Assembly (NCBI GenBank): GCA_003344405.1
Contig: NOWV01000001.1
Location: 930,001-994,000, forward strand
Direction of reading: 5' to 3'
DNA: 64,000 bases
Source: Trichoplax sp. H2
Taxonomy: Eukaryota
Of this stretch, positions 12,900 to 62,320 are shown piece after piece. Each line of letters opens with the position of its first letter. The stretch's first letter is position 1. The position numbers were made by a program, and so were the translations under genes. Below the pieces are notes generated by a model. The model did no database searches. It was given only the letters and a program-made list of their open reading frames with translations, and was not told the DNA's origin.

Positions 12900-13330
12900 A
12901 ACATGATGATAAATCGTGTGTTAATCGAACCAGTACGGCCTCATTAGATTATTGTGCATTGAATAATACGTTCATCTGCCCTGATTTCATATCCATGATC
13001 AAATCACCTGATACGATATCGATGCAAAGTTTTAATTATGGCAATCACCATTAATTAAAAGAAGAAGCATACTTTCAATTGAAAATCGAGGACAAGCATT
13101 TTTTAGTATGAACAAAGTTTTAACTGTTGATTGCTACGTTAATCAGTTACATTATTATTTTTCTCAACTTCAATAAAGCCATGAGTATATATCACTTGTA
13201 TGAATACAAATTAGTTATGTTGCAGAAATATTTAATCTTGCAAGTTAACAAATTGCCATAGGTATATGATATCTATCCCTGACTCGATAATGTAAATGGA
13301 TACAATCCAGCTTTCATCTCTACCTTATAA

Positions 13331-16300
13331 CTACCGTTGGCATAAGTTACTAGATCTATTTTGGCGTACATTAATGCTAAAGGTATTGTTATTATTATTA
13401 GTGATGGTAATATCATCATCCAATGTTGCATAGAGCTCATTTTCTTTCCTATCCATTTTACCCAAACAGACTGGGACAATATCATTTCTAACATTGTTAT
13501 TATTAAGGGAAACTTGACAATAAGGATTAGAGACAATGTGAGTATTGCTGCAACGTTGATTACCAGCAAATGAATTATTATCCTTCTTGACAATAGTACC
13601 GGTATTATTAATGATGGTTGTTGATGTTGATGCCAATTGTGTTACAGGACCCATTGACGTAGTGGGCTGCGATCGAGATTTTCGACTAGTAAAGGCATTC
13701 TTCAGACGTTTTCGATAATAAATAGCAGCAATAGTGGCAAGGGCAGCTACAACACAACTAGTAGCGATAATTATGTTTATCGTCGAAGATTTATGATCTG
13801 TTAAAGCACCATTATTAACCTGAACAACGACAAATGCGTAGCCAGATATCGATTTATTGTATCTGTTGTACGTTCTAACAAGTAACTTGTAAGCATTAAC
13901 TCCAATGATTGGCTTTTGATTTAGGACAATATTACCGAATCGATCAGTAGTAAAGATATGGTAATAACTACTGCCACCAATAATAGTATAAACTAGATTA
14001 TCTCGCGAAACTTGATTAGATTGAGATAATTGAATTTTTGCAACTGCTGTCCCAATTTCAGTATTGGATTTCATGGTTACGTTATAATATTTCTGACTCA
14101 ACTGCAATGCATTGCTATCGTAAGTGATGTAAATTGTCATCAGCCATTCACTACTTTGAGGTGGCTTACCACTGTCTGAAACACGAATTTTTAACTTGAT
14201 TATTGCTGGACCGCCACTTGGAATTTCTTTGACATATCGAATAACACCCGTTGTTGGATCGATTCTAAACCAACCATAACTATTACCGCTTGCGATGGTA
14301 TAAGTCAGTGGTGGTCCATTGTATGGTTCATCCGCATCAGTTGTTATTAATTTTGCGAAATCTTGCCCAAAACTCATAGTATTATGAATGTAACCTAAGT
14401 AAAAATTTGAAAAATTAAATATTCCCATTGTAATGATAATAATGATTAATATGGAAAGATCTTAATAAGATAGGCATAGTTGCCCATCATCCATGTCTTA
14501 TTATCGTTTTAAATACTAATCCTAGATCTGATGTAACCTAAAACAAAGTTTGAAAATAATATATCCTATCATTTACCAAACATTATTTTAGCTGTTGACT
14601 AAGCAGTTACTGCAATTTCGGACTAACTCCAACGATAAATTTTGATTTGAATTGAACTAGATCCTCATATAATGAATCTGTTATTCTCCGTATGATTTGG
14701 AAACAGTAAATTTTTTATACCTATTAACTTAAAATTAAATTTTAAACTTTCAATGACTGCTTTCAAGTTTGAGGGGCCCCCATATATTGCAGAATTACAG
14801 TGAAAGTAATGATTTTCGGCTGACTTCGACGATGAATACATAATTATGCAGTAAGCGTTTCTAGCAGTGTAATATCTGAAATTAATCGCTGATATTTTAC
14901 CGCAACACAATAAATTAGCGAACGAAAAATAAGTTATTTGAATCTACCAAATAGATAATTTGCTAATTATTATATAGGCTCCGGTAGCTGAGCTTGCGAA
15001 TTAAAATATGCGGCAGAGTCAAATATATTCTATAATCAAGAGTATCTGCGACGATACCTTAGGCGTCATTATGGAAAGTAATTTATTAATAAATAAACGA
15101 CTCTTCCGCTAAAATGGTATTCCGAATGATAACTTGGATTGAAATACCACTTTAGAGGCATATGCGCCGTTCAAGTTAACTTCTGCGACGACGCCCAATA
15201 TATCGTCACAAGTCCGCCGAAATGGCGGTACTTTCTTTCGTTATTATAGTGATCAATACATAAGATTGAACCAAGATATTACACACTTCCACCTCTCATA
15301 TATTACAATCATTTACTTGGCATTAGATTTAAATAAAGAAAAAAAATGTTGAATACTCTAAGCTCTCTTCCCACTTATTACTCGCAGTTCAACTCGTACG
15401 TAAGTCAACATATTTTACAAATATTTACACAGATGCTCACTGCCTGTATCAAATGACTTATGCTTAGCTTAAGTTGCAACATTGACTTTAAAATTGGCTT
15501 CTACAGTAATTGCTCTTCGTGAATAACATTCCAAAGGTAAGATATTGGTAAACTTATATATCGGCTGATCTTGAAACATAATGATTGAGGAGTTAGGCTT
15601 TCAGTACACTAAATTGCAATACTCAGAATAACTGCTGTCAATTATCGATTGGTAAGATTGTAACTCTATTTAGCTACATATTGATTCGTTTTAAGAATTT
15701 TTTAGCTATTTATAATGCTATAGGATAAAGTATAAAGTATTAGCCTATAGTTTTCAATAGATAGTATTAAAGCTAGCGTCAAGCTTAATGATTGAGAAAT
15801 GCTATTGCGGAAAAGGAAAAGATCATGTAAGCGAGCACATCGATTGAAACTATATCCAACCACTAACTGATTCTATGCAAATTTCAATATCTTAACGATA
15901 CCTTCGGTGCATTAACTATAGCTAAACGATTGTTAAAGCCACTGAGAGTAAAAAGTAAAAAAATTTCTAGTATAATAATTGATTTCGATTATCTACAAAT
16001 ATTCTATATAAAAATTTTTTAAGTTCTTCTCACTCATCAAGTATAGTTTCAGTCTAACGACTATGGCCAGCTTTACAGTAGTGTAAAATGTAACCATCTG
16101 GTGCATATAAGACATGAAATTTAAACTACCCTATCTTCTGTATTTGCTTTTTTTAATCCATGGAATAGCTTGATAAAGTGGCGATTGTATAATAACACAA
16201 AGAGGGTGCGTTCTATACCATACTAACTAAAGCGATTTGTGGTAATTATTCTAGTAAAATTTTAATAACTGTTGCAATCCTGCTGTAAACTGATATAAGA

Positions 16301-18485
16301 AACTTCGCTCTACGAGTGTATGGTATCGCCGTATTGTCTAACATACACTTTTAATTAGTACTTGTATTAGATAGAAAATCTATGACAGCTTAAAAAGGGC
16401 TTTCTAACTCATTGGAATCTAATACAGTGTCTCCTTGAATCAACAATTTTATCTAATATAATTAAAACTCATCTTCCAAATTTATACAATTTTTACGGTA
16501 TAGCTTCTCTTTATTTTAATTTACATACCTACTAAGCTTGAAGCATTAACCTTAGGTGGGTTATCGTTAATGTCGGAAACATAAACAGAAACATCGATTT
16601 TGCTATTACGAGATGGTATTCCCTCATCCGCTGCTTGGATAGTTAGTCTGTAGGCTGCAACAGTCTCACGATCCAGGTGGCGTCGTAAAGTAATATAACC
16701 AGTTTTAGCGTTAATTAAGAAAGTATCGCCGATGTTGCCGTCGACAATAGTGTAAATTATTTTGCCATTATTACCACTATCAGGATCAGTTGCTATTACT
16801 GCTAGCACAATTTCTCCAATAGCAGCATTTTCATTAATTAATCTCATGCACAGACCTTGTATAGCATTTGGATAGCATAGAACATTTAGCATGATGTTGC
16901 CGACATAAAGAGAGAATGGAAAGCAAATAATCAAAATAAGTTAATAATATTAGGTTAAACCTATGCCTGTCTCAACATTCTAATTGACTGAAGGAGTATT
17001 TACTAACAAAATTGCTTTACCACCTTCTCTATTAACATATAAAATCGTTTCTATACTAGTCTAATATTTTAATTTTCACTTTGTATACAGACGCAAATAA
17101 GTGATAGAAATTCAAAGATCTGTTTATATAAACCTATCATTCCATTTGGATTTGGACTCACCTTGTCTCCTTTGAGCTGCAAATTTTCTACTTTTCTCAT
17201 CGGTTAAGCAACTAGCATTAAATTTTGGTGCATTATCGTTGACGTCGATTACTGTAATCTTGACTACGGCATCATCATACAGCATTGGATGTTTCTTACT
17301 GGTTGCTCTAATTGAAAATTGGTATGATGATTGCCTTTCTCGATCTAATGCTTTAGCCACAGTTAAATAGCCTGTATTCGGATTCAATAGGAAACTATGA
17401 TTGTGATTGCCAGAGGCAATGTAGTAAGTGATTTGATCATTCATTCGCGCCGATAGTATAGTACTAGCATGGACTCGTAAAATAGCACTTCCAATAGTGG
17501 CATTTTCACTAACATTGTCATGATAGATTCCTTTCCAAGGATGGTGGCTACTTTGAGTAGGTTGAAATAATGGCCGGAATGGACTGCGTACAACATGGAT
17601 GATTACTTTAATGGTGGAAATTCTTTCACTGATATCTTTAGCGCTAACAATCAGTGTAAAAGTGTTGCTTGTCGGTGAATAAACTAATGCCCGTGTAGTA
17701 TTTAAGTTGCCATTATTTTGGCCTATAGCAAAGCTAGAATGCTTATTGCCCGAAGCAATGGCATAAGTGATTTTGTCATCGGATAACGCTTCAATGCGGA
17801 TCATGGGAGTATTGGCTGGTAGCTGTTCTGTGACATTAACTTGATAAAGTGGTTGGCGAAATATTGGAGCTCCACCAGGAAAATAAACATGAATGTAAAC
17901 TTGAACAGTGTTGTGTAAATTTAAATTAGAATTGACTGTTGCACGCACAATTAATTCATAATCTTGGATACGTGGTGTTGCCAATAATCGTATATTTCCA
18001 TTTAATTCGCCGATAAAGAATAAGCCATCTTCATTACCGCTATCGATTGAATATCGAATAATACTGCCATCGGGTACTTTTGCACCGACAGTGACTACAA
18101 TCGATTCGTGCTGTAAAGCGCATTCTATCGATTTATAATAAAATCGTGATGTAAAATTGGGCCTTTGATTGTTGGATGGGACTTCGCGCCGTGGTCGATC
18201 TTGGAGAGAATTGCTATTTTGATGGTGTAATGGAGACGGCCGATGAGGATTGTTTCCACTTGGAATACCATATGGTATGGAAGGGTGACGACGACGATTA
18301 TCATCATTCTTCCTCGTTAAGAGATTCCATGATAAATCTTGGTGTGATTGCAAGTCTGTTTTGCCATCTAGGATTCGTTCATTTTTCCACGTTTTATCCA
18401 AAAGGGCTAGACATTGATTAATTTGGATTGTTGCCAAAACTGACAATAACAGAACAATACTTTTACCTTTCAGAAGGGTAGACAT
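13331..18485 (-). CDS. Single-pass cadherin-superfamily protein (~904 aa): signal peptide, prodomain, 6 EC repeats, TM, ~125-aa cytoplasmic tail
   Basis: Three coding exons join in frame through phase-1 GT-AG introns: 18485-17162, 16855-16529 and 14394-13331 (2715 nt). Cadherin motifs are LDRE, DVNDNAP, ATDPDSG, DINDNPP and TDADEP. There is a hydrophobic N-terminus (IVLLLSVLATIQINQCLA) and a TM segment (IIIATSCVVAALATIAAIYY-RKR). A polypyrimidine/AG acceptor just upstream of the ATG (~18496) implies an unlocated 5' UTR exon. Confidence 0.9.
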
Positions 18486-18611
18486 ATTTTATCTTCTAGA
18501 ATGGAAAAAAAATAGAGAGTATTTAATCGTCAAAGAGGTCAATAAATCTTTCCGCATAGCCTATTTACTAACTATAAAGTAAAATTCCAGGAAAAAAAGA
18601 GAGAAAGTTCC

Positions 18612-37580: not shown

Positions 37581-40500
37581 ATGCCAGCAAAGAGATCCAC
37601 AACCTCGAAAGAGATTTCACGTCGAAAAACTTCAGCCAAAATGCCCATCAGCAGCAGTAGCAGCAGCAGGAAACGCAAAAATAAAACTCCCTTGGATACT
37701 CAATCAAAAAGGCAAAAAGGTAAACCTTGACAGTTGCTGCTCTTCTCTTGGACTACGGCGGGAATTTTAGAATTTCAATTACTTTAGACATGATCGACTT
37801 TTCTGTAGCCAGTAAAAAACGAAAGCAGTTGACGACTAGGAATGAGTAAATCCCCGATCGATGCCAGTCCAATCAGAGTATAGTAGGGTTTGGTTAGTAA
37901 TAATTGACGCATTATGATGAACGCAATAGTCTGTAGATACACTCATATTTGAATTGGAGCAATCCAGATGAACTGCAGGTGTAGTTAAAGGACACCAGCT
38001 ACTGCAAGGATTTCAACACGGTATTGGTGTTCCTTATACGACTACAAATATGCAGTACTTCAATATACTGGATTACCCATACTGTTGAACAGTAATTGAT
38101 TTTCCTAAAGCAAGTTACGGTCCATGTTTCTCCTTGAGTAACGCTGTTACTGTCCCAGTATAATCAGTTTAATAAGTTAACCATATTTCTCGCTCAGTTT
38201 AACTGAGTTGTACTTAGTAAATAACTGCTAATAATTCGCAAGAAGAGTAAACCTTCACTCTATGGTACTCTATGAATTATAGTTGAATTATACAGTACTA
38301 GACGTTGCGATAGATGATAGTTGAAGTGTTTGTATAAAATAGATAACGGTATCATAGCTAGATTAAATATTGCATACGCCTAATTTGCATAATATAAAGT
38401 AAAGAAAAAGTGCAAGTGTGGAAAATGCTAATTCTTTTTGACCTGTTTAAAGTAAGGCAAAGGCTATTGAGTTCAATGCAAAGTTAACTGATTTATTCAT
38501 TTATAATATAAATTGCGGTCATCGTTTAGCTCGGCTTTCATTGGCTTCCGATGAAGCCGGGATAGTACTTGTATTGGGACAAGGGGAGCTTGGCCAGTTA
38601 GGATTGGGAGAAGAGATCTTAGAACGTAGCAGACCGACGGCTGTTAAGAAACTCCTTGAAGTAGAATTTATTCAAGTTGCATGTGGTGGTGTTCATACTG
38701 TTGCCTTGACTAAAGCTGGCGAGGTAGGAAGAGAAAATTTGTGAGTGTACTTGGATTAAACTGAAATGACTATTCTAAATTTTTTAAAAGCAAAGATATT
38801 TAACTAATGATTAGGCTGTATATCTAAATTCTCCTTTTGGGTCAGCACGGTAGATCCACAGCATATGCATTACTGTATTATTAGATTTATTTTAATTTCT
38901 TAGCGTTGTGTACTTGCCTATCAGGCTAAGTTGTGGTATCAGAATTAACGGTCAGCTTTGTACAACATCCTATATTACACTGTATTTTTATATTTTCGAA
39001 GCTTAAGTTCTGCTGAGATGTTCGCGAGATTACTATTGTATACAGTACTCTAATGCTTGAATAATGGCTATTATATACCTGGGTTAACACCTTTCTACAT
39101 TGTTTGAGAATGCTTAAATAGAAGTTAAATTAATTCAGTGATTTGTATCAAACAATGTACTCGTATAATGATTATTGTAGCCGTGTTCGTAGCGTTTAGA
39201 CTATAAAAAGCTCAGAAATGCAATTTACCCACTAGGTTTAAAGTATATATTAGCTAGCAGTAAGAAATACTTTTGTAAAACAGTTTAAGAATTAGTGTTT
39301 GCAATAATATATACCAAAATACCAAGAAACATCCAAAGCCTATTGCTGAATTGTATGTATCATTATTATGCATTGGTATCGTGTTCTTTAATACATAATC
39401 GATCTTCAGGGATCGGTAATATCGAAGGCGAAATGCCTGGATATAAATCTATCTTACTATTAGAAAATTATTTCGTCTTTACTTTTTAGAGGCGTACAGT
39501 ACTTAGATAGGCTTATTAGTTGCATAGCTGTATACCGTATTGCAATTTACTGGTGGTTTGCTAAAAGTTATAATTATTAACTGATCCTATAGATATATAC
39601 GTGGGGCTGCAATGATGAATGTGCCTTAGGTCGCGATACTTCTGATACAAGTGAGGCAGAATATTTGCCTGGGCTAGTTGATGGTCTCGATAATGTAAAG
39701 ATTATCCAAGTTTCAGCCGGTGATAATCACACCGCTGCCTTAGCCGATGATGGTCGCGTTTTCTGCTGGGGAAATTTCTGGGTACATGACATTTTTTCGT
39801 AGAATACTTCAAGGATGTAGTACTGTAATGCAAACCAACTAAAATTTTTTATGTATCTATATTAGGATAATCGGGGGTCTATAGGACTGAACCTTGCCGG
39901 TAAACAACCTCGGCCCATTGTTATGTTAGGAGATCCGAATGACCCAGTGATAAAGATTGGATCTGGAAATAATCATGTCGCTGCGTTGACTGCCAACGGA
40001 CTTATCTTTACATGGGGTTGTGGCGAGCAAGGTCAGTTAGGGAGAGTCGCAGAGAGATTTTGTAGTCGCGATACACGCCAAGGACTTAAACGCTTCTTGC
40101 AGCCGGCAGTTGCTCGTGTTACGCAAAGGAGCAAAAAAGATATAAGGTTTAGCGATATTTTTGTTGGCCCTTATAACTTATTTGCCGTAAATGCAGCAGG
40201 CGAAGTTTTTGCTTGTGGTTTAAATAATTATGGTCAAATCGGTAACGGTAACATCACTAGTTTATATTATTTGGCGAAAATTGATAGTTTATCGGCTCTA
40301 AATGATGGCAATGATGAACGACAGATTCTTATTGCCTCCGGTGAGCATCATACCTTAATTCTCGCCCGCAATGGTCGTGTTTATAGCATAGGTAGAGGTG
40401 ATTATGGACGCTTAGGGCTTGGTCCTGATGTTAAAGAATGCTCTCATCCCACTGAGATCGAAACTTTAGCAAATTCAGATATAAAAGCTGTTACCTGTGG

Positions 40501-40693
40501 CTTAGCAGTGTCTTTTGCCGTCTCCAATTCAGGCGATGTCTATTCCTGGGGCATGGGTACCAATTTGCAACTAGGTAGTAGCACCGACGATGATATATTA
40601 ACACCAACCTTGGTAAAAACGAAAGAAAGTTATAATTTCTTTGCGGCTTCTGCCGGTGGTCAACACACTGCCATCTTGGGTAAAAAGAAATAG
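37581..40693 (+). CDS. RCC1: Regulator of chromosome condensation 1 (Ran GEF), 4 coding exons
   Basis: Exons 37581-37719, 38530-38723, 39593-39781 and 39866-40693 join in frame. There is a basic N-terminal tail (MPAKRS...RKRK). RCC1 repeats read [75 protein letters not shown] and AGGQHT. Confidence 0.95.
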
Positions 40694-47100: not shown

Positions 47101-50100
47101 GATGCAACAGGTCAGCTTTTATAATATTAAATACTTATTCTTGTAGATCAACTCAAAGCAGAAGTAACCAAATCCAATCCAGTGGCCCAAGAGTAAGTAA
47201 ACACCGTACTAGTTACTTTGTAAAATTTAAAAGAGACTTTCAGCTGGTGTTATCGTTAGCTTAATGTTTCGTGAGGTAAACGTTAAATTGAAAGTTATTA
47301 TTGCTTTCTCACTATTGAAGTAAATCCTCGACTCTACCGCTACCTAAATCACAAGATCCGGATGTAAATGCTGACGATTATTTTCTGCCGTTCGAATTGG
47401 CTTGCAAGTCGAGATGTTCACGAATCGTAATTGCTTCTTTGGATTGCCTACAGGTTAATTTTAGCTATGTTACGGTCAATCCTTGGGAATAGTCAAGTAA
47501 ATTGTAGCATAGCATGACGTAAAATTTGTCGATACGAATCTCAGTATTTAGATTTAGTGGATATCAAAGTTGTTATTATATATAGACTTTTAAGTATCTG
47601 TTTTGAGATAAATCAATATCTACGCACGTTTTTCGATCTAAGTTCAGTACCCAATGATAGTAAATTGTAAACTATAGCAATTTTAATTTCATGATAATGG
47701 CAACACAATACTATTTATACTAGCATTTAGACAAGTTTATTATCGCTGTACAGTCCTTGAGAATAAGGCTACAGAATAGAGTTGATTTAAAATTAAAAGT
47801 GCCTTATTATTTATTTTAGAAATTAATAGCCTATGGCCAGCTAACGGGCAACGGACCTGATAAAGCTGAAGATGGAAAGAGAAGATTAATCGATAGAATA
47901 ATAGAAACGATTTGTAAAAGTTTTAATGGAACTCAAACGGATGATGGAGTTCAGTTACAAATCATCAAGGTATAACAATTTGAGATATTTCTTCCCTTTT
48001 CTTTTGTGCAATGCAGACATTACATTATTTATTTGTTTACATTTTTATAATTTCATAAATTGAATGCGAAAGTTTGCGATGGTGTTTTAAGTTAATCCAG
48101 CTTGTATATTATAGTTTTTTTATGAGAATATTATGTTGTACTGACTAGTTTATCCTATATTTTAGGCTCTCTTAACTATAGTTACCTCGACATCTTGTGA
48201 AGTACATGAAGGAACATTATTACTAGCAGTGCGAACATGTTATAATATTTATCTTGCTAGTCGTAACACCATTAATCAAACTACAGCAAAGGCGACGTTA
48301 ACGCAAATGCTTAGCGTGATATTTTCCCGAATGGAAGTAAGTAATGTAACTATAACTAATCAATTAAATTTCTCAATTTTATGGACTTAGCAACATGTAT
48401 TGAATGTCTCCTGTAGTCACAAGCGGCTGCGGAACAAGCCAGTAGAGATAGTAAGAAAAGAGAAGGCCCTAAAGAAACAACACAATATGCGAATCAAGAC
48501 GGAAATCGAAGCAGAACTGATACTGACATCGACATCGACAATGTATCTGTTGTTAGTGAAAATAGCTTAGCTACTTCATCGGATGAAGTTCGTAAAAGCA
48601 CATCAACCACTTCAGATACTGTTAGCAAAGAAACAATACAATCAAAAGCGGAAGAAATTCATGAGCAAATATCACAAGCTGCTAATAATGATAAAGCTAC
48701 GTCGGATGCAGAGGAGCCGGAGGCTAAACATAATTCATCTACGAGTAGTCACCTTGATGGAATAGCCAATTCGGCTGTATCGTGTAATGATCACGAAGAC
48801 GCTAATAATGATAAAGCTGCTAAGGTATCGAATGAGGAGAATGCAGAAACTTCACAAGCAGAACAGCCTGAAGAAGAAGTTAAAGCGGAGGTTGTGACAT
48901 CGCCCGAAGATACCAGTAACGTTAGCACTGAAAACTCCATTACTAATAATATTCAAGACGGTGTCGCTAATGAGCATTCAGCAGCTGACGCTGCTAGCGA
49001 ATCTGAAAATATCACTAAAACGGTTAACATGAATACATTATTCTAACACTGTAAGTTTTTAGGAATTAATTATTGAATATATAAAATCTTATTTTCATTT
49101 AGGACGGTAATAATGCAGAGATTCAGGAAGTGGAAAGCGAAACACCAAAGGCTGAAAACAATGAGAACAGTTTGGAAGCAGTTCCTTTGAAAAATAGTGG
49201 ATCAAGCGATGAAATACAGTCTGCTACTGGCACTTCTGTAGAAAAGTATATAATAATGCATTGCTGTGGATGATTAAAAATTTTTAATGATATAAATGTC
49301 CAAATTGTATATCGAAATTATCTTGCTTTTATTAGTGAAACCGAGCAACAGCCAACTGACGAAGCTAATAATGCTGATGAGAAAGCAAATGCTACAGGAG
49401 ACTCAGTATCGCATGCTAAGTTCTCGCATATTCTTCAAAAAGATGCCTTCATTGTTTTTCGTTCTCTTTGCAAATTATCAATGAAACCTTTAGAAGATGG
49501 ATATACGCCCGATTCAAGGCAAATTATAGGAGTTATTAATAATATTTTAGAGTGCTTGTTTTATCGGTAATTGATGCCGGTTCGATCTTCATCTTATCAT
49601 TATTGCTATCTTAGATCCCACGAATTGAGATCCAAGGTGCTATCGTTGGAGCTTTTACTTTCGATTTTACAAAATTCGGGTCCAGTGTTTCGAACAAATA
49701 AGACATTTATAGATGCCATCAAACAATATCTTTGCGTTGCCCTGTCGAAGAATGGAGTTTCGTCTGTCCCTTCTGTTTTTGAATTGTCATTGTCAATATT
49801 CTTAATCTTAATGGAAAAATTTAAAACTCACCTAAAGATGCAGATTGAGGTATCCAATGATCTTGGTATTTCACATCTTTTAGAAGTGTTGCATTTAAGA
49901 GTCCTTCTGATTCAAATTCTAATCGTCTACTAGGTATTTTTTAAAGAAATTTTTCTCAGTATTCTGGAGACTTCGTCCAGTTCATTTCAACACAAATGGA
50001 TGGTAATGCAGGCTCTTACCAAGATTTGTGCTGGTAAGCATTGGACCGTAACCTAATTAACATGCTATATCGTATCTTGTCTATTAATATTTTAACTTGA

Positions 50101-53100
50101 TTTGTTTTAAATTTTCTGATCTAGATCCTCAAAGTGTTGTAGACATTTATGTAAATTATGACTGTGGCTTTTCGTTAGCGAATATCTATGAGCGCTTAGC
50201 TAATGACCTGTCAAGAATAGCGCAAGGTCGGCAAGCTATTGAATTAGGTGCTAATCCTGTACAAGAAAAAAGTATGCGTACTAAGGGATTAGAATGTTTA
50301 GTGTCTATCCTAAGATGCTTAGTCGAATGGTCAAAAGATCTCTATACTAACCCACATGCGAGCATTCATGCCGGTTCCAGTATTGCTTCATCAGCAGATT
50401 TTGCCTTATCTCAAGATGAAGAAAGAGATGCTACCGTAGGAGATTCAGATACGGAATCTTTAGCCTCTTCAGTATCTATAGTACCTGCCGATAATCCTGA
50501 AGAATTTGAAAGTATGAAACAACGTAAAGAAGTTATGGAACACGGTATACGATTATTTAATAAGAGTTCTAAGAAAGGCGTTGCATACTTACAAGAGAAA
50601 AATCTCCTTGGCTCCGAACCCTCGGATGTAGCATCATTTTTCCATAAAGATGATCGTTTAGATAAGGGACAGATGGGCGATTTTATGGGAGAGAATGAAA
50701 AATATAACAAGGAAGTCATGTATACTTACGTAGACCAAATGGAATTTAGTGGCAGAGACATTGTAACCGCTCTACGATTATTTTTAGAGGGATTTAGACT
50801 TCCCGGTGAAGCTCAAAAAATAGATAGATTAATGGAAAAATTTGCTGCACGTTATTGTGAGACGAACTTATCGTAAGTAGCATTAAAATTTTCTAGGTAC
50901 GTCAAAATAAAAATTAATGAACTTATCTTCGATTTTTAGGAATGGAATTTTTGATAGTGCGGATACTGCTTATGTATTAGCATATTCTATCATTATGTTG
51001 ACAACTGATTTACATAATGCTCAGGTATATAAGTAAAATAAATCGTCTGCAATAATTAAGCCACTGTTTATATTTTGATGTAAAAATACAATAAATAATT
51101 ATTGCTGTTATACAGGTAAAAAACAAGATGACAAAGGAGCAGTATATTAAGATGAATCGAGGAATTAATGATAGTAAAGACTTGCCGAAGGAATATTTGG
51201 AAAAAATTTATGACGAAATCGCATCCAATGAAATCCGTATGAAGCAATCTAGTTCCAATCGTCCTTCAAAGCACCCTAGTCAAAGTAATAAAAACACACT
51301 TCTTTATTACATTTTTTATCATGATAAAGCATTCTTTTAATTAATTTTTTTCGTAGCTATGTTGAGTGAGAAACACCGACGTAGTGCTTACAAGTTAGAA
51401 ATGGAACAAATGGCTGAGACCGCAAAGGCTTTAATGGAAGGTGTCAGTCATATGGATACGGATTTTATAGCCGCAACACGTGTTGAGCATGTTCGTCCTA
51501 TGTTTAAGGTAATAAACTTTTTTTCGATCTTTGCAACTGATCGTTACTAATTTCTCACTGACTTTCCCACTTTAAGACGGTTTGGACGCCTTTAGTAGCT
51601 GCGTTTAGCGTGGTTCTACAAGACTCTGATGATCAGATTACGTCCTCACTTTGTCTGGAAGGTCTTCGCCAAGGAATAAGAATTGCTTGTATTTTTGGGA
51701 TGAAGGTATTCATAATTAACGATGAGACATCTATTATTTTCAGTACTTACAAATTTATTACTTTTTCTCATGTTTCTATACAGCTGGAACGTGATGCTTA
51801 CGTGCAGGCTCTATCTCGATTTACACTTTTAAGCACCAATTCGATCCTTGCGGAAATGAAAGCTAAAAATATCGAGACAATAAAGACTTTAATTTCTATT
51901 GCGCATACCGATGGTAATTACTTGGGAAGTTCTTGGTTAGAGGTACAATTTTAGCAGTAACTGTCTTGTTGTATGTACTAACAATAAGTCAATAGTACCC
52001 TTTTGCCATGATACGTTACCATAAATTCTTAAATTTTATATAGGTTTTGAAATGTATATCTCAGCTGGAATTAGCTCAGTTGATTGGTACTGGTGTGAAA
52101 ACTCATCCACTAGAGGATCCTGATGCTACTAGTTAGTTTTATTTTTAGAATGAGTATATACTTGCTCCTCTCATTCAATGATAGAGTATTAACGTAATAT
52201 TTTAATAAACGGATTATGCTTTTAAATTAATTTTAGATTTGCATAAAGCAACAAATAGTAAACGGCTAGCTTTGCTACAAGAATCAATCGGAGAAACTAG
52301 TTCTCAGAGTGTTGTAGTAGCTGTTGATAGGATATTTACGGGATCGGTCAGATTGAATGGAGATGCTATTGGTAAATGAAGCTAGGGTTATAAATTGTAT
52401 ATTGTTGTCGAACCCTTTCTTTAAATCTTATTATTATGCCCATTTTTTTTGCAGTTGATTTCGTTCGGTGCCTATGCCAAGTATCATTAGAGGAGCTACG
52501 ATCGGCACACAGACGTATGTTTAGTTTGCAGAAAATTGTGGAAATCTCGTATTACAATATGGGTCGCATCCGTCTAGAATGGTCTCGTATATGGGCTGTA
52601 CTCGGAGAACATTTCAATGAAGTAAATTTTCTAGCATAAAATGTTGAATAATGTTAGATTTAGCAATATTTCATTTAAGACTGTGTCAGCCGTAAATGAG
52701 AATCAAGAAATTGATAAATTTACTGTATTAAAAAATTTTTGCTCTTATGTATGCATTAATTCAGGTTGGTTGCTATCCAAATGAGGAAGTTGCCTTTTTT
52801 GCAGTAGATTCACTACGGCAACTATCAATGAAATTTATAGAAAAAGGAGAATTTGCCAATTTTAGATTTCAAATTGATTTTCTTCGTCCTTTTGAATACA
52901 TCGTGAAACACAACGGGTATAGTATTGATATTTTTATAATATAGTAAAACGGTATTACTATCATTTACTTTGACTAATATAAATAAATTATTTTAAAAGA
53001 TCAATTACAATTCGAGATATGGTCGTACGTTGTATAACTCAAATGGTACATTCGCAAGCGCATAATATAAAATCTGGTTGGAAAAACATTTTCACTGTAT

Positions 53101-55864
53101 TTCACTTAGCAGCCGCAGATCAAAATGAAGCTATAGTGGAATTAGCTTTCGAGACAACAAGTAAGACGCCTATTTCTAAAACTCTATTTTGGTATAAATA
53201 AATAAATAACGGCTTAACTAATTCAACGTACTATAATTTTCAGATAAAATCTTTGAAAGACACTTTAGTGCAGCTGTGGATTCATTTCAAGATGCTGTGA
53301 AGTGTCTATCTGAATTTGCTTGTAATACAAGTTTCCCTGATACCAGTATGGAGGCTATCAGATTAATTAGGACATGTGCGAAGCACGTTGCTGATTCTCC
53401 AAATGTAAGTCATCGTGTTAATTATTGGAGTTGTTGCAAACGGAATGTTACTCTTACAAGTGACTTTGTGTCTATATAGTTGTTTCGTGACCATGGTTCA
53501 GAAGAAACTACAGTCGTTGATCCAGACCGCGTCTGGCAAAAAGGATGGTTCCCAATTTTATTTGAATTATCTCGTATAATTAGTAGATGCAAACTTGATG
53601 TTAGAACAAGGTAAAATTGTTTGTTATTATGACTGTATTATGGTTCTATAAAAATGAAGTGCAATTAAATATAATATTGGCGTATATAGAAAATTGATGT
53701 CTGACTTAAAATTTCGTACATTGTAGGGGATTAACGGTGATGTTCGAAATCATGAAGACTTATGGACAATCATTTAAACCTCAATACTGGAAAGATTTAT
53801 TCAAGATAGTCTTTAGAATATTTGATAATATGAAATTACGAGAACAAAAAACCGATATCGAAGTACGTTTTGATTTAGTAGAGTGATAAGTAGAAGATGG
53901 ATTTATATACATACATACAGGGTTGAATAAGAAAATTAAAGAGATTTTTTGGTAAAATTTTGAATTACCATGATTAATAATTTTTAGAGAGCAGAGTGGA
54001 TGACAACAACGTGCAATCATACTTTATATGCTATCTGTGACGTATTTACCCAGTATTTCGATGTTTTGTCGCAAGTCCTGTTGGATGATATATTCGTACT
54101 TTTGAATTGGTGTGTCGAACAAGGTAAATTTTATTATGCTAAAGTTACGTGAGCTGGTCATAGTTAATGATTGTTTTTTGGCATATAGACAATGAACAAT
54201 TAGCTAGGTCAGGAACTAATTGTCTCGAGAATTTGGTAGTCTCTAATGGATCGCGTTTCACTGTTACTCAATGGGATAAAACATGTAGTTGTATTGAGAA
54301 GATATTCAGTAATACACTTCCTCGGCAACTGATTTGTTGGCGCCCTAAATTAAGAAAAGATTCTAGTATAGAAACAATGAGTACTGAGAAACTTAATCGT
54401 TCTGAAGTTGTATCTCATATGAATGTATCTAATGACGATGCACCTTTACCGAGTGAAGAATCAAGTACCGAAGATATGATAAAAAGTAGATCAAATGAAG
54501 ATATCCAGAACACTAGTACAACAGGTTTGCATAATTGTCAACATTTACTGTGAAGCAAATGTTATGTCATTATGTCATTTTAAAACGCAATTTGTATTGA
54601 AGATGGTCCAGATGGCACAGATATTAATGTAAATGAGGCCAATGCATCAAGTGAAAAGGTTGAATTTGATCATTTGAAAGACGAAGAACCTGTAAAAGAA
54701 CAAACTAAAGGTATAGTGATAATTTCAATTTCTTCGGTACTTGAGGGAATAAAATAAATAAAAATTTTACCTTGATTTATGTTGCAGAACTGACGGATGC
54801 AGAGTTATTAGCTGCTTTAATGATAAAATGTGTTGTCCAATTGGAACTAATTCAAGCTATTGATAACATCATTTTTTATCCCGCAACAAGCCGTAAGGAG
54901 GACACTTATTATTTATCAATTGCGAGGGTAAGTTATATATCTATACCTAACACCGGAGATAATTACCTAATTAGTAATGCAATCCAACATATAGAAATCT
55001 CAGGAAGTAATCGAAAGCTTTGATCCAGAAACTATGAAAACTTCTGGCATGTTTTCCCATTTACTTTCTGGAGAGTTGTTTATCCTTTTGGATTGTTTGG
55101 AGAGATCGCATAAATTTGCGTCAAGTTTTAATTCTAACGATGTGCAGAGAACTTTGTTGTGGAAAGAAGGTTGGAAATAGCAAAATTACTTATATCTGTT
55201 GTTTTCATTATGATCAGCGTTATTTATAATTTTTTTGGACCTATCAGTTCATCGATGTTGTAACTTTGAAATACTCTCATTTATAGGTTTTAAAAGCAAG
55301 GCCAAGCCCAATCTTATCAAACAAGAAATTAGCAGTTTAGCGTGTTCATTACGAATGTTATTTTGTATGTACACGGATCAGAAACATAGCGATGTTAAAT
55401 CTGAAGTGGAAGCTAGGCTATTAAGGTAGACGAGCGTTTTTTGTAAAGAATTTACTCGATTGTTCACTTACTAATAACTCTATTATTCGAAGGTCGATAA
55501 CTGATGCCTTAGTATACTATCCCAGCGTGACGTCAGAACATCATAGAGATGCATGGACTATTCTAATGGTTCTTTTGTTTTCACGATTGTTACAATTAAA
55601 TGATGATGATGTAAGTAGAAAATATTTATTAGCCATATGCATTGTTGGTTACTGTTGATGTATCATGTTAATGCAGCATCTAAAATTTGTTTTTTATCCG
55701 TTTTGTGATTATAGTTCCGGGCCCATGTATCTCATTATTATGAGAAACTCTGTAATTTAATGGAGTTAGAACTTAAACCAGAAATTCGTTATCTACTCCG
55801 ACGTACATTTTTACGCATTGGATCGATGTTTGAAGTAATACCGCCATTGGATGTCCATGATTAG
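44125..55864 (+). CDS. ARFGEF1/2: Brefeldin A-inhibited Arf guanine nucleotide exchange factor (BIG1/BIG2, Sec7 family), multi-exon
   Basis: Exon 1 (44125-44248) reads [44 protein letters not shown] region: [36 protein letters not shown] region: [30 protein letters not shown]. Sec7 motif: [34 protein letters not shown] regions: [29 protein letters not shown]. Stop TAG at 55862-55864. Confidence 0.97.
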
Positions 55865-57135
55865 TAAAATCCATGTAGAATTTGTTTTAAAACATATTAT
55901 CAAATTTAATATACAGATTGGCTATCTAAACGCGTTATAGTGGCTCATAATGCATGTCTCATAACCATTATTGTAATTATTGGTTTTATTTTATTAACAT
56001 CAATCTCAGAGGAAATATACACTTGTAACTTCCGCTATTACTCTCAACCTTCCCTTAGAATATCAAATAATTACACTAACAAGTTAAACTGTTGATGTCA
56101 ATTCAACTTATGAAAATTTTGTAAATGTTCTTAATGTAATATTTGCATCTGCCAAATTATGGACCTATTGAAATTGAAAGCATCTGGCCCATTCTTTACT
56201 AAAAATAGAAGGTATTGGGGGGTTATCGTTTCTTGTCCGTATGTGTAACATGTTGTTGCAATACTTAAGAGGCTATCACTACAATCGACCAAAATGTGCT
56301 ACATAGTCTAACATATATATTATTCTATTAGTAGTTTTTACGGAGTCAGACGTCTATAAATCGCTACTGTACTTAGTTTTTGAAGTTAGAAATTTAAACA
56401 ATATCTGTTAGAGAACTTTGCAAAAACGGTACTTTGAGTTACTGTATAAAGTGGTTAACTCCATTTGATACTGTAAATCACGGCTCTTGCTTGGTCGTAA
56501 AGACTGAAACTAATTTAGCATGCTACAGCGCTTGTATTACTTTAATTCAATCTATAAAATTTTTTTATTGCCAAATCATAAATATTTCCACATAAGAAAT
56601 AAAATTTAGCAAGAATAGGGTTTACCTAATTTTAATGGTTTGCAATTATTTAGTTAAATTTATTATGTGATTTTTTAAAAAGAGCGCTATAGTATGGAGG
56701 CTGTTAGGAAGAATCTTTGCGGGATTCTTCAATAATAAAAGCTAATAAGTATGAAATGACACTAATATTGTTACTGCCCTTTATCTTTAAAGCAATCTTG
56801 TTAGTTTAATAGCTATACATGACGCATATTAAATGTAGTTAGTACTGGTTACCGGCTACGTACCGCTTTTTTTGTAGAAATGATTGTAAATGTAAAAAAA
56901 TTTATAATTTGGTACGCAGATCTAGCGATATATTCTTTTACGTATCACGTAATGACTTCATTTATATCATATTACTGGTATAAAACAATCCTAGAGTAAG
57001 AATACTACCACAAAAGACAACGTTAATGTTATGATTACTCTCCAGCTTGTGAATATTGTTATATCGAGTATCTACAAAAAAAATTGCAAAGGATTTGCTA
57101 TCAACGTACAGTTACTAAATTTTTTTTATCTATGT

Positions 57136-58985
57136 TCATCGGAGATGTGCTACTTCCTGGTCTAACCTCCATCCTAGTGATTTTTCATTGTCGGTCCCGT
57201 ATTGTTTGAGAATGTTAATAAATAAATGAAACACGTTGACATCTTGTTCTAATATATTAAACAAAATAAATTTATTGCGAATAAATGATGAAGACTCAGA
57301 TTGTAGTTGGTTAAATTCTGACAAAGATAAAATGCCATTTTCATATAACGGACGGATTAATAGATTTGCATCCATGATTTGACAGATTGCAGCAAAGTTT
57401 CTTCTTAATATGTTTTGAAATTCTTTATCTGTAACGAGAATTGCGACTGTTACATTTCATCTATATGTACAATATAGGAATAATAATCATTTACTATGTC
57501 TGTAAGCCTATACGATAAAATCATTAAATAAGTTTTAGGGCGATATAAAAAAATTAATTTATCTGCAGTTCGATTATCAAACGGAGAATTAAAGGATAGT
57601 CAAGGATTTATGTGTATCTTACCTGATTCCACTATGGTATGTGATGCATTAGTAGTATTAGAATTTTGCATCTTAATTGGGGCTTCATTAGTAAGCTCAA
57701 AATCGACTGACGAATCTTTATCATTATTTGTGGCTGGATCTTCAACCGGTGCAGATGGAGATGGCGGTAAATTACATTGAACATCTTGGCCATGTCTTAA
57801 TGGTTTTAGACAACATCCATAAACCATAAGATTTCCTTTAACACTAGTGCACTTGTTAATTTTTATCGTTAGACCGTTATTATTTCTCATGTATCCCACA
57901 TTGGCAAGATTTTGCCATATTAGCTTGGATAAGTAAGTATTCACATCACCAACAGGTATAGGATTAGGTGACCATAAGCCTTTGACTCTAGCGCTATAGC
58001 AATCAATGGATTGACCGTTAATTCCTTTCTTAATACTGCTACTGGTACGCTTAATGTTTACATACTCAATTTGTCTAGCTTGAACCTCGTCGAAGATGAT
58101 AGAAAATGTTAGAAAGAATCCTCTTGGTGCTTTATTAATACCGTTGTTATCTGGATATCTTCTGACACCGTCAATAATTAAAAATAATTGTCTATGTTTA
58201 AGAGCATTTTGAGTGCCTTCTTCCCAAGATCCCATTAAATCGTAGACCTTTCTTTCAAAATATTTGTATACAACGTTCTTTCTAAAAATAAGTTTTCCAT
58301 CATCAGGTTCAATAAAATCATCGATATAGGGAACCTTATCGGCACTATTATATTCTACGTAAGAGCTAATACTAATTGCTTTATCAATCCATGCTTTTGA
58401 TTGCGGCACTTTATATCCATAAACAAAAATCAATCTTTTGTTGGAAATATAACCAGCTGCTGGGATTTTATTCCCGTTTGTGAGATTGATTGTACTTAAA
58501 TGAGATGATTTTGTAGATGTGATCTGGTGAAGATATGATATAATATTTTCTTTAGGAACAACATCCGGGATACCTGTGATAATACCCTCAAATCTTTCCA
58601 ATAATTTCCCTCTTATAAACTCAGTGCCAGCTGATGATATCCCTATATATTGAAGCTTTTTGATAACTTCGTCATTAACATCAACTGAAAATGATATGTA
58701 ATGGCCAAGTATACCCTTTGTAGAGCCCAAATTATCTGGATACCTCCTAACTTCACCAATAACAAGGCAAAGTTGCTTATTCTCGATAGCCTCTTTCATT
58801 TGAGATTCCCAGCAATTAGATTTTAAATTATGGACTTTACGTTCATAGTACCTTATAACCTTTTGATTACTATATTGTAGCTTTCCATCACTAGGTTCAG
58901 TAAAATTTTCAATATATGGCTGATCTCCATGAGGTTGCCTGCTAATGCAAAACAAAGAGATTTTAGCTGCACCTGAACATAACAT
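57136..58985 (-). CDS. Protein with two tandem ~196-aa repeats of an unrecognised domain and a C-terminal CARD-like death-fold domain (~551 aa if the ATG at 58985 is used)
   Basis: Exon 58985-57623 (GTAAG donor, phase 1) splices to 57428-57136, giving DKEFQNILRRNFAAICQIMDANLLIRPLYENGILSLSEFNQLQSESSSFIRNKFILFNILEQDVNVFHLFINILKQYG, which has the CARD helix pattern. Internal repeat: PYIENFTEPSDGKL...YYERKV...VRRYPDNLG...VYG versus PYIDDFIEPDDGKL...YFERKV...VRRYPDNNG...VYG. The 5' end is uncertain because of a possible acceptor at ~58973. Confidence 0.8.
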
Positions 58986-60699
58986 TTAAGAGCATGGTCA
59001 AGATAAAGATATGATTAATTACTCGATATAAATCATTTCTGTAATTAATTCTGTACAGTGTCATATACTTGTCCTACGTCTTAATTACGAAGATAGGCAA
59101 CCACATAATTGCGTTCTTTATGCTAAGTATACAGTAATTAATTTCAATTTTATAATGCACAAAATATACGAAATACTAGAAGTACGATATATTGGTTTAC
59201 TGATGCATCGAATTATCAATAGAATATTGTGTGCAGTCTACTGAGATACCTACAATACGATAAAATAAACAAAAATATGATAATACTTTATAGCAGTACG
59301 CGTATGATACTAGTCTAATGAGAATAATATCGATTGGAGCACTTAATACGCGTGCTGTATGAGAATATTTTATTTCAAAGTCTTCAGCTTTATCTAAAAT
59401 TATGTTTCGTACAAGCATTAAGAAGAAGTAGACAATCATCCTAGTCCACTTGTAGAGATGGAATCATCGAGTATTTGTATCATACAGTAGTTATTAGTGT
59501 AAAGGTATATGAAGAATTAGGATTGAGCAGCAATCCTCGTTGATTTTTGAAGCAATTAGGTATAAGTTTAATTGATTGATTTGTGTGTCATCGGCTGAAA
59601 GTACTACTGTACTTCAACTTTATGAAGAAAAGAAATGGTAAAATATTGATATAATTCTGCCAAGTTTCTGTTATTTACGGTGAAGTAACAAACTTTATAT
59701 GTTGGGAACGATTGGTTATCCCGTTGTTATATATTAGGTTAAATTGGCTGCGTTTGCTCAGCATCATCTTACTGAAATAGCTACTACAGATGCCGTATTC
59801 TATTAGGATTTAAACTTGTGATAGTCAAAAATGAAGGCGTAATTACAAAATACCGTATATGATCATAGCAGTAGCGATCCTTTAATCTGTTATTAGCTTA
59901 AAAATACGTGTAGAAGTTAACTCAGCCATTTCAGTTGACTATACGGTATACAGCACTCGTCTACTGTCACGCATAGTACTAGTAGCGAACTGAAATTGTT
60001 ACTTCAGTCTTATTAAGATTTAAATCTATAAACCAATGGCGAAGACGAACGTTATTTGGTAATATGCGACAATCCATTACGTCAAGTTGTTATTAATTGT
60101 AATTACTAATGATAGATCACTGATCTATGTATTGAATTTTGAATTGTTGGTAATGCAGTAAGTTAAGTCGATATCAGTGTTGATCAAGTTGCCATTACAG
60201 TGGCGTTTTATAAGGAACGAACTTACGTTAGTCTACAGTGAAGTTGTAACATCATCACGTCCAATTACTATTATTTTTATGATATTTGCATAGCATTGCA
60301 CTTTAGCCATTGAGTTTTATCGTCTCAATATACAGTACTATACGAATACATGCAGGATATCAAGAGAACAATTCATGATCATTGCACTAGTTAATCTTCC
60401 ATCATTCTGTTTACCTTTTAAAATTCAGCATTGTGATGAATTATAATAACCATCAACTCTAGTAGCAATAAGGAAATGACTGTATCCAGGCTATCAATAT
60501 TCCAGATATCTTTATGAATAAATGGTGATCTTTCTTCTAGTCTTGACTGATTGATTGTTATTCAATTACTTGATTTCAAAAAATAGCCGATTGGAGCACT
60601 CAATCAATCAAATAAACCTTCAACTCCGGTAAATTATACTGTACTACACTGAGACAGATTTTGGAGGGCAAACCTCCAACCTACTATGTTAATAACTGT

Positions 60700-60845
60700 C
60701 ATTACGTCACTAACTGTAAATTACGTCAGCTACTTACAACATTAAATACAGTAAAGTACTGAGGCACGTGACTGCAATAGTGTCTCATATGGAACCCTTA
60801 CAAGGCCCGGTTTGCAGGGATTCCAGCGATACTAAAATGGCGCAG
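60700..60845. promoter_or_regulatory. Possible promoter or enhancer motif cluster
   Basis: TTACGTCA twice (60702, 60721), CACGTG (~60765) and a YY1-like AAAATGGCG (~60834) lie within a locally GC-richer patch. Confidence 0.3.
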
Positions 60846-61930: not shown

Positions 61931-62320
61931 ATTATCATTCAATATCTTTTTTAATACAAATACAGTTTACAGCAGTATAAATGACTTATGTTGTGAAATT
62001 TATGATTATTATTCCAAAAGGCAAAAATCACAATAATCAAATCTAGATTAGTCTAACAAACGTTAAAATTACAGATTTAATCTTTGCAAAGATTAGGCAA
62101 ATTATTAAATTGATGTTGGAATTTACTACTAATGGCTGCTAGTTTAAGAATACGTATAACCTAAGCAAACGGTTCAATTGATTTTGCAATTACCAATAAT
62201 GACTGCTAACGTAAAATCATTATCTTAGCAAAATATTAAATTGATCTTTCAATCATTAATAATTAGCGGCGAACGTGAGATATAACCTAAATTGGACCTG
62301 AATCTAATTGTGCTGTTAAA

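Follow-up and report, generated by a model that had tools for sequence, protein, structure and literature searches.

A C-terminal CARD joined to a tandem domain known from placozoans in a Trichoplax protein that may act in the DNA-damage response

To our knowledge, nearly all of the CARD proteins that wire sensors to caspases pair the CARD with NB-ARC, helicase, kinase, PYD, FIIND or a like shared module. Damage-induced adaptors of the PIDD/RAIDD type act for caspase-2, and the vertebrate CARD-only proteins ICEBERG and ARC damp apoptosis. In placozoans the Apaf-1-like family is expanded, radiation tolerance is extreme, and most canonical cytosolic sensors are missing. Here we describe a gene on the minus strand of a 64,000-nucleotide stretch of the Trichoplax sp. 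H2 genome (assembly GCA_003344405.1, contig NOWV01000001.1, positions 930,001 to 994,000; this whole stretch is called the window, and all positions are counted from its first letter). The locus is TRIADDRAFT_58120/TrispH2_000588, annotated as "hypothetical." Its product carries two copies of an orphan domain followed by a flexible linker and a C-terminal CARD.

The CARD belongs to the same predicted fold class as those of Apaf-1/CED-4 and caspase-9/CED-3, with 8 to 21% sequence identity to them. In contrast to those proteins, the CARD is C-terminal here, there is no NB-ARC ATPase or protease, and the Pfam match is below the curated cut-off. NLRP1, CARD8, ASC and RIPK2 also have C-terminal CARDs, but Pfam finds none of their FIIND, PYD or kinase domains in this protein. 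The likeness to PIDD1/RAIDD (the PIDDosome) is that of a death-fold adaptor tied to genotoxic stress: RAIDD supplies the only PDB sequence match to the CARD exon, and the gene appears to be induced by X-rays.

We placed contigs of four public sequencing runs (X1, X5, X7, and X10) on positions 55500-60500 of the window. Runs X5, X7, and X10 come from three studies, and X10 is recorded as an RNA library. Run X1 gave joint-free contigs over introns and intergenic DNA alike and hence behaves like DNA. The open reading frame (ORF) of the large exon spans 57600..58985 on the minus strand (461 amino acids [aa], stop to stop). In phase 1, a GT donor stands behind 57623 and an AG acceptor in front of 57428; the joint between them was present in contigs of X5, X7, and X10, as the sequence-only reading of this DNA had predicted. 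The 194 bases skipped (57429..57622; GT..AG, minus strand) are an intron between the large exon (57623..58941), which encodes both domain copies and the linker, and a separate phase-1 last exon (57136..57428), which encodes the CARD in 96 codons and ends in a stop codon at 57138-57136.

The start of the coding region differs from that first proposed. The sequence-only reading had begun the protein at an ATG at 58985, but the RNA contigs of X5, X7, and X10 go no further than 58940/58941, right behind an AG acceptor, where X1 reads through. Contigs of X5 and X7 start at 60415, which is followed by a GT donor, and X5 alone contains low-depth joints, 58941>60415 and 58937>60414 (depths of 3.2 and 3.8), whose sides of 30 and 27 letters are slightly short of our 31-letter rule. 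From an ATG at 60431-60429, the frame runs through MLNFK and a split Ser codon into RQPHGDQPYI... and is open for 542 aa. We conclude, with moderate support, that the start codon is the ATG at 60431, in a small upstream exon whose coding part (60415..60431, minus strand) holds MLNFK and two bases of the split codon, and that the ATG at 58985 is intronic. The 5′-untranslated region (UTR) extends at least to 60500, and intron 1 comprises 1,473 bases (58942..60414; GT..AG). Because the start codon is in an upstream exon spliced to the large exon, the coding region holds two introns and not one. The 542-aa product has no hydrophobic segment. An upstream ORF of 11 codons (60418-60453, minus strand) starts at 60453 in another frame and overlaps the ATG at 60431; its stop codon, 60420-60418, lies within the mini-exon just ahead of the donor after 60415.

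At the other end of the gene, RNA contigs run joint-free from 57428 down to 55967 or 55715 and then show a plus-strand GT..AG intron at 55611-55714, which is the last intron of a convergent Sec7/BIG-like neighbor. These contigs bridge the 3′ ends of both genes and are unable to show transcript ends, so that the extent of the 3′-UTR (55967..57135, minus strand) is uncertain. The 3′-UTRs of the two genes probably overlap.

Both public models of the gene are partly wrong. The translation of the initial 551-aa model is identical to RDD47764.1 ("hypothetical protein TrispH2_000588," Trichoplax sp. H2), and according to the RNA contigs the start ATG of RDD47764 falls inside intron 1. The Trichoplax adhaerens (H1) model, XP_002114377 (TRIADDRAFT_58120; 488 aa), shows a single residue change (Y58 for C58) and uses an acceptor at 57248 inside the last exon together with a donor at 57167, which deletes the first half of the CARD. 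No RNA joint was found at either of these positions in the contigs of X5, X7, and X10. The GenBank entries for the protein date from 2008 and 2018 and call it "expressed" or "hypothetical," and the H1 mis-splicing, by cutting away half of the CARD, probably kept it out of domain-based surveys. Among the four runs, the coding sequence has nine single-base differences (57277-58813), of which three are synonymous and six are non-synonymous. The non-synonymous variants (C49Y, K276R, S308N, R324S/K, and D413N in 542-aa numbering) fall in loops and the linker, and C49Y corresponds to the difference between H1 and H2.

We next consider the last exon, which had been described as a CARD from its helix pattern. 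The Pfam CARD profile (PF00619) matched this exon with 18.0 bits (E, 0.003; profile positions 2-73 of 85), below the cut-off of 23.9, and gave a sub-threshold 13.2 bits in the full-length protein. A phmmer search of PDB with the exon returned a single chain, the RAIDD CARD (E, 0.07), and word-based searches with it returned only the protein itself. The AlphaFold2 model of the 551-aa protein has a mean predicted local distance difference test score (pLDDT) of 69.2, with 58-81 in the CARD region. In this model, residues 452-550 form seven helices, and the predicted structure is a six-helix antiparallel bundle of about 90 residues in which the first helix is broken into two parts, 452-464 and 466-472. 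A broken first helix (H1a/H1b) is a hallmark of CARDs. Foldseek matched the model to PDB CARDs with a probability of 1.00: to the Apaf-1 CARD 1cy5 (target-normalized template modeling [TM] score, 0.78; root mean square deviation, 2.1 over 92 columns) and also to the Apaf-1/caspase-9 complex, ICEBERG, caspase-1, CED-4/CED-3, MAVS, and CARD8; the corresponding E values are only 0.06-0.3 because the query is long. When the model was aligned with VIA-align to 48,161 representative chains, the first 30 rows were all CARDs except for one designed protein. The predicted fold is nearer to CARDs than to the PYD, DD, or DED subfamilies. The sub-threshold sequence evidence is backed by the predicted fold. 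We conclude that the last exon (residues 455-551 in the numbering of P0011, which is used for all of the residue ranges of domain copies, linker, and CARD given here) encodes a genuine CARD, with the Apaf-1/CED-4 and caspase-9/CED-3 class as the nearest match to its predicted fold.

The rest of the protein is dominated by the tandem domain. As first noticed by inspection, the two halves of the large-exon protein are homologous: BLASTP aligned them from residues 23 and 219, an offset of 196 aa, with 55 of 173 identities (32%; E, 3e-29), and the alignment contains all of the shared motifs that had been quoted (PYI..F.EP.DGKL, Y.ERKV, QL.L.I..VRRYPDN.G..K...G....FS, and VYG). The domain is thus about 173 aa long. 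Our own single-domain hidden Markov model (HMM; 173 positions) recovered copy 1 (residues 21-192; 58410..58925, minus strand) with an E value of 8.8e-72 and copy 2 (residues 217-392; 57810..58337, minus strand) with an E value of 1.2e-77, and it detected 17 copies or part-copies in nine proteins. A third, partial C-terminal half suspected by eye in the tail of P0010 was not detected by a half-domain HMM. The copies are followed by a 62-aa linker (residues 393-454; 57624..57809, minus strand) that is rich in Pro, Ser, and Asn, as had been claimed, and that has seven of each. The domains are mildly basic (pI, 8.9 and 9.4); the linker is acidic (pI, 4.55) and is predicted to be disordered (pLDDT, <50 at 397-453). 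In an alignment of 13 complete repeats, identity reaches 90% or more at, among others, the E and V of ERKV, the E of SWE, and the PD of YPD, where one repeat reads PE; no His or Cys is conserved. These strongly kept residues and the mild basic charge suggest that each copy has a defined binding or catalytic surface.

Libraries of described domains gave no confident match to the repeat, in keeping with its having been called unrecognized. Pfam had no credible match for it in this protein or seven relatives, and no weak family recurred among them; at E values up to 10, nothing but the CARD rose above chance support in the protein. Matches to DUF1173, Yqai, DDE_Tnp_1_3, and REase_II each occurred in only one of eight members and were taken as chance. 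NCBIfam and PHROGs gave nothing below an E value of 0.008, a sequence-profile search of PDB gave nothing credible, and the ESM Atlas, which includes the two Trichoplax proteins, contains no model of them and yielded no usable feature match. The PADLOC model PtuB1 (PDLC00350; the Septu nuclease PtuB) did match copy 1, with an E value of 1.8e-6 over profile positions 81-198 of 224. We rejected membership in this HNH nuclease family: the match is found in one of eight members only, PtuB is an HNH nuclease whereas the orphan repeats conserve no His or Cys, and the matched positions miss the catalytic histidine and most of the zinc ligands described for PtuB (H57 and C43/C46/C78/C90, respectively, as given in PMC12673091). 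A search for PtuB1 sequences for profile comparison found none at an E value of 1e-10 in 400 genomes (the class of one E. coli genome) and none at 0.001 in two single E. coli genomes.

Copy 2 was folded alone (nine alignment rows; pLDDT, 78.3; predicted TM score, 0.67). The model runs from a β-hairpin that includes ERKV through a helix, four short and long strands, a second helix, two long strands, and a long helix to three strands; in the full-length model copy 1 has the same order of elements, mostly at a pLDDT of 62-88. The domain is thus predicted to be of the α+β type. Foldseek with the single-domain model found no match at an E value of 0.001 in PDB or BFVD, with TM scores of at most 0.4, and there was no enzyme fold among the structural matches. 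Judged from their entry titles, chains of the phage neck, tail, or baseplate or of the type VI secretion system make up 20 of the 50 VIA-align rows listed for this model, and these rows cover only its C-terminal half (approximately residues 104-201). The likeness to phage tail-tube, tail-terminator, and Hcp-like proteins is weak and confined to that half of a predicted model, and we regard it as a weak hint that the C-terminal half resembles the tail-tube/Hcp class. Weak or absent matches demonstrate neither a new fold nor an imperfect model, and either may be the case.

One family considered for the domain was the PD-(D/E)xK nuclease superfamily, in which a restriction-endonuclease-like α/β core carries D...(D/E)xK. 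A D...ExK-like pattern (EP.DG, about 15 residues, and then ERK) lies on the predicted β-hairpin and is followed by a helix and a strand. This arrangement would suit a recruited effector enzyme, such as a pseudo-dimer nuclease, whose tandem domain is brought to, or released from, a CARD platform. The basic charge of the domains, the PtuB1 match of repeat 1 (PtuB membership itself being rejected), and co-induction with DNA-repair genes (PMC8635375) point the same way. We nonetheless consider a recruited effector enzyme improbable.

From sequence searches, the domain is known only from a small family, and all of its named members are from T. adhaerens or Trichoplax sp. H2. A word-indexed search of 5.8 billion clusters returned four proteins with the domain, and a profile search over all 1.84 billion representatives returned six, all with E values of 3.5e-27 or better and none in the twilight zone. 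Pattern matches in viral contigs (178), prokaryote genomes (22), and JGI metagenomes (334) included none that was confirmed as a relative, and tblastn against phages and plasmids found no relative. The paralogues TRIADDRAFT_57186/TrispH2_003268 and TRIADDRAFT_57032 have the same tandem pair (33-53% identity) but are CARD-less in current models. Phylogenetic analysis of the copies groups five repeat-1 sequences from four proteins in one clade (support, 99/98) and three repeat-2s in another (96/95), which indicates that the tandem duplication predates the split between 58120-type and 57032-type genes. A retrocopy or horizontal origin had been proposed from the apparently intron-free coding of the repeats. 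Such an origin is not supported: the start codon lies in a separate upstream exon, paralogues are present in the same genomes, the viral, prokaryotic, and metagenome collections yielded no relative outside the family, and third-position composition in the large exon (A,.32; C,.14; G,.12; T,.42) matches that of the pooled neighbor ORFs (.30,.17,.12, and.41, respectively).

The CARD-less paralogue TrispH2_003268 (P0013), which lies outside the window, ends in a PPLPPDY tail. We take this tail to be PPxY-like, a type of motif that WW-domain ubiquitin ligases bind, and family members may carry differing C-terminal docking tails. Also outside the window, the 1,229-aa RDD44879 of Trichoplax sp. H2 (P0012; "Spermatogenesis-defective protein 39-like") has three copies of the orphan domain (11-182, 211-381, and 489-660) as well as a Vps16_C region; this model is probably a fusion of two family genes and a VIPAS39-like neighbor.

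The sole functional datum for the gene is a reported induction by X-rays, and it points to the DNA-damage response. It is listed for TriadG58120, which we take to be TRIADDRAFT_58120 on the strength of the Ensembl naming rule; a literature check of this equivalence found nothing. TriadG58120 is one of 74 genes whose expression was raised 2 h after near-lethal X-irradiation, in a design of 3 replicates of 40 animals per condition (log fold change [logFC], 7.37; P, 2.4e-4; false discovery rate, 0.035; PMC8635375, Table 1). The same list includes RAD52, LIG4, DCLRE1C, XRCC6, POLB, POLL, and LIG3, and the main text of that report gives no annotation for TriadG58120 (PMC8635375). TriadG57189 is also X-ray-induced (PMC8635375, Table 1); its number is close to that of the paralogue TRIADDRAFT_57186. 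The Apaf-1-like genes of Trichoplax sp. H2 that encode CARD or death-like domains are reported to number about twelve, and the animal is also reported to have TIR-CARD proteins and two CARD-caspases (PMC6321704). Hence, CARD partners exist in the organism.

Our preferred reading, which we hold tentatively and at slightly less than an even chance, is that this is a lineage-specific protein that, in the DNA-damage response, uses its CARD to dock on the Apaf-1-like/CARD-caspase machinery of placozoans. The CARD would contact Apaf-1-like or caspase CARDs by homotypic CARD-CARD binding, and docking would couple the binding or other activity of the tandem domain to the activation of caspases in that response, in loose analogy to the PIDD/RAIDD adaptors and caspase-2. 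The flexible linker suggests a tethered, independently acting module. Several points weigh against this reading, in addition to the assumed identity of TriadG58120. In the CARD region the model was built from one sequence, with no alignment depth. TRIADDRAFT_57186 and TRIADDRAFT_57032 have no CARD in current models, which indicates that the domain works without one. A human-consensus scan found no p53-type site between 55 and 62.3 kb (4 sites against 1.8 expected in the whole window). The protein may act for or against death or in something unrelated to it, and may be a sensor, an effector, or a brake. Finally, the logFC values in the published table are very large, and the doses given differ (218.6 versus 181.1 Gy; PMC8635375).

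As a brake, the protein would occupy the CARDs of caspases or Apaf-1-like proteins and damp apoptosis after damage, as ICEBERG and ARC do. Matches to predicted fold do not distinguish activators from inhibitors. Such decoys are usually CARD-only, however, whereas about 80% of this protein is conserved tandem domain, and we consider this role unlikely. A bolder form of damage sensing would make the tandem domain a new fold that evolved in placozoans and recognizes a product of genotoxic damage (possibly broken DNA, or a damage-induced metabolite or protein), with clustering of the CARDs nucleating CARD-caspase activation. We give this version a low probability; if true, one of the simplest animals would have invented a PIDDosome-like damage sensor independently.

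The sequence-only reading had instead proposed a cytosolic innate-immune receptor that binds a microbial or viral ligand and recruits CARD partners. A ligand-type module, flexible linker, and CARD are laid out as in CARD-coupled receptors, and the six non-synonymous changes among the nine coding variants of the runs fall in loops or the linker. Trichoplax sp. H2 is reported to lack RIG-I-like receptors, cGAS, STING, and RIPK, and placozoans to lack LRR-type NLRs, which would leave room for lineage-specific sensors (PMC6321704). However, nine variants are too few to show diversifying selection, and the sole expression datum concerns radiation and not infection. We consider an immune receptor quite unlikely.

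The neighbors of the CARD gene are of ordinary housekeeping or adhesion types. They include an ORF with cadherin repeats (13276-18488, minus strand), an RCC1-repeat ORF (38451-40690, plus strand), and an ORF with HUS and Sec7 domains (49571-51337, plus strand) that represents the Sec7/BIG-like gene convergent on the CARD gene. The long ORFs of the window contained no further domain of a death-fold or immune type, and Rfam and tRNA scans of the window found nothing. Upstream of the CARD gene there is a 63-base tandem repeat (2.4 copies, 72% matches; 62097-62253), and a 19-base repeat is found at 60693-60728.

A literature search found no paper naming TRIADDRAFT_58120, B3S0X6, RDD47764, XP_002114377, TRIADDRAFT_57186, or TRIADDRAFT_57032, and no description of the orphan domain or of an architecture that combines a tandem domain with a CARD. 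We conclude that the CARD adaptor type is known and that its partner here is an undescribed, lineage-restricted domain. The CARD is thereby paired with a domain that has no detectable relative in sequence or predicted fold. The reported induction by X-rays offers a concrete and testable entry to the coupling of damage with cell death or extrusion in a very simple animal.
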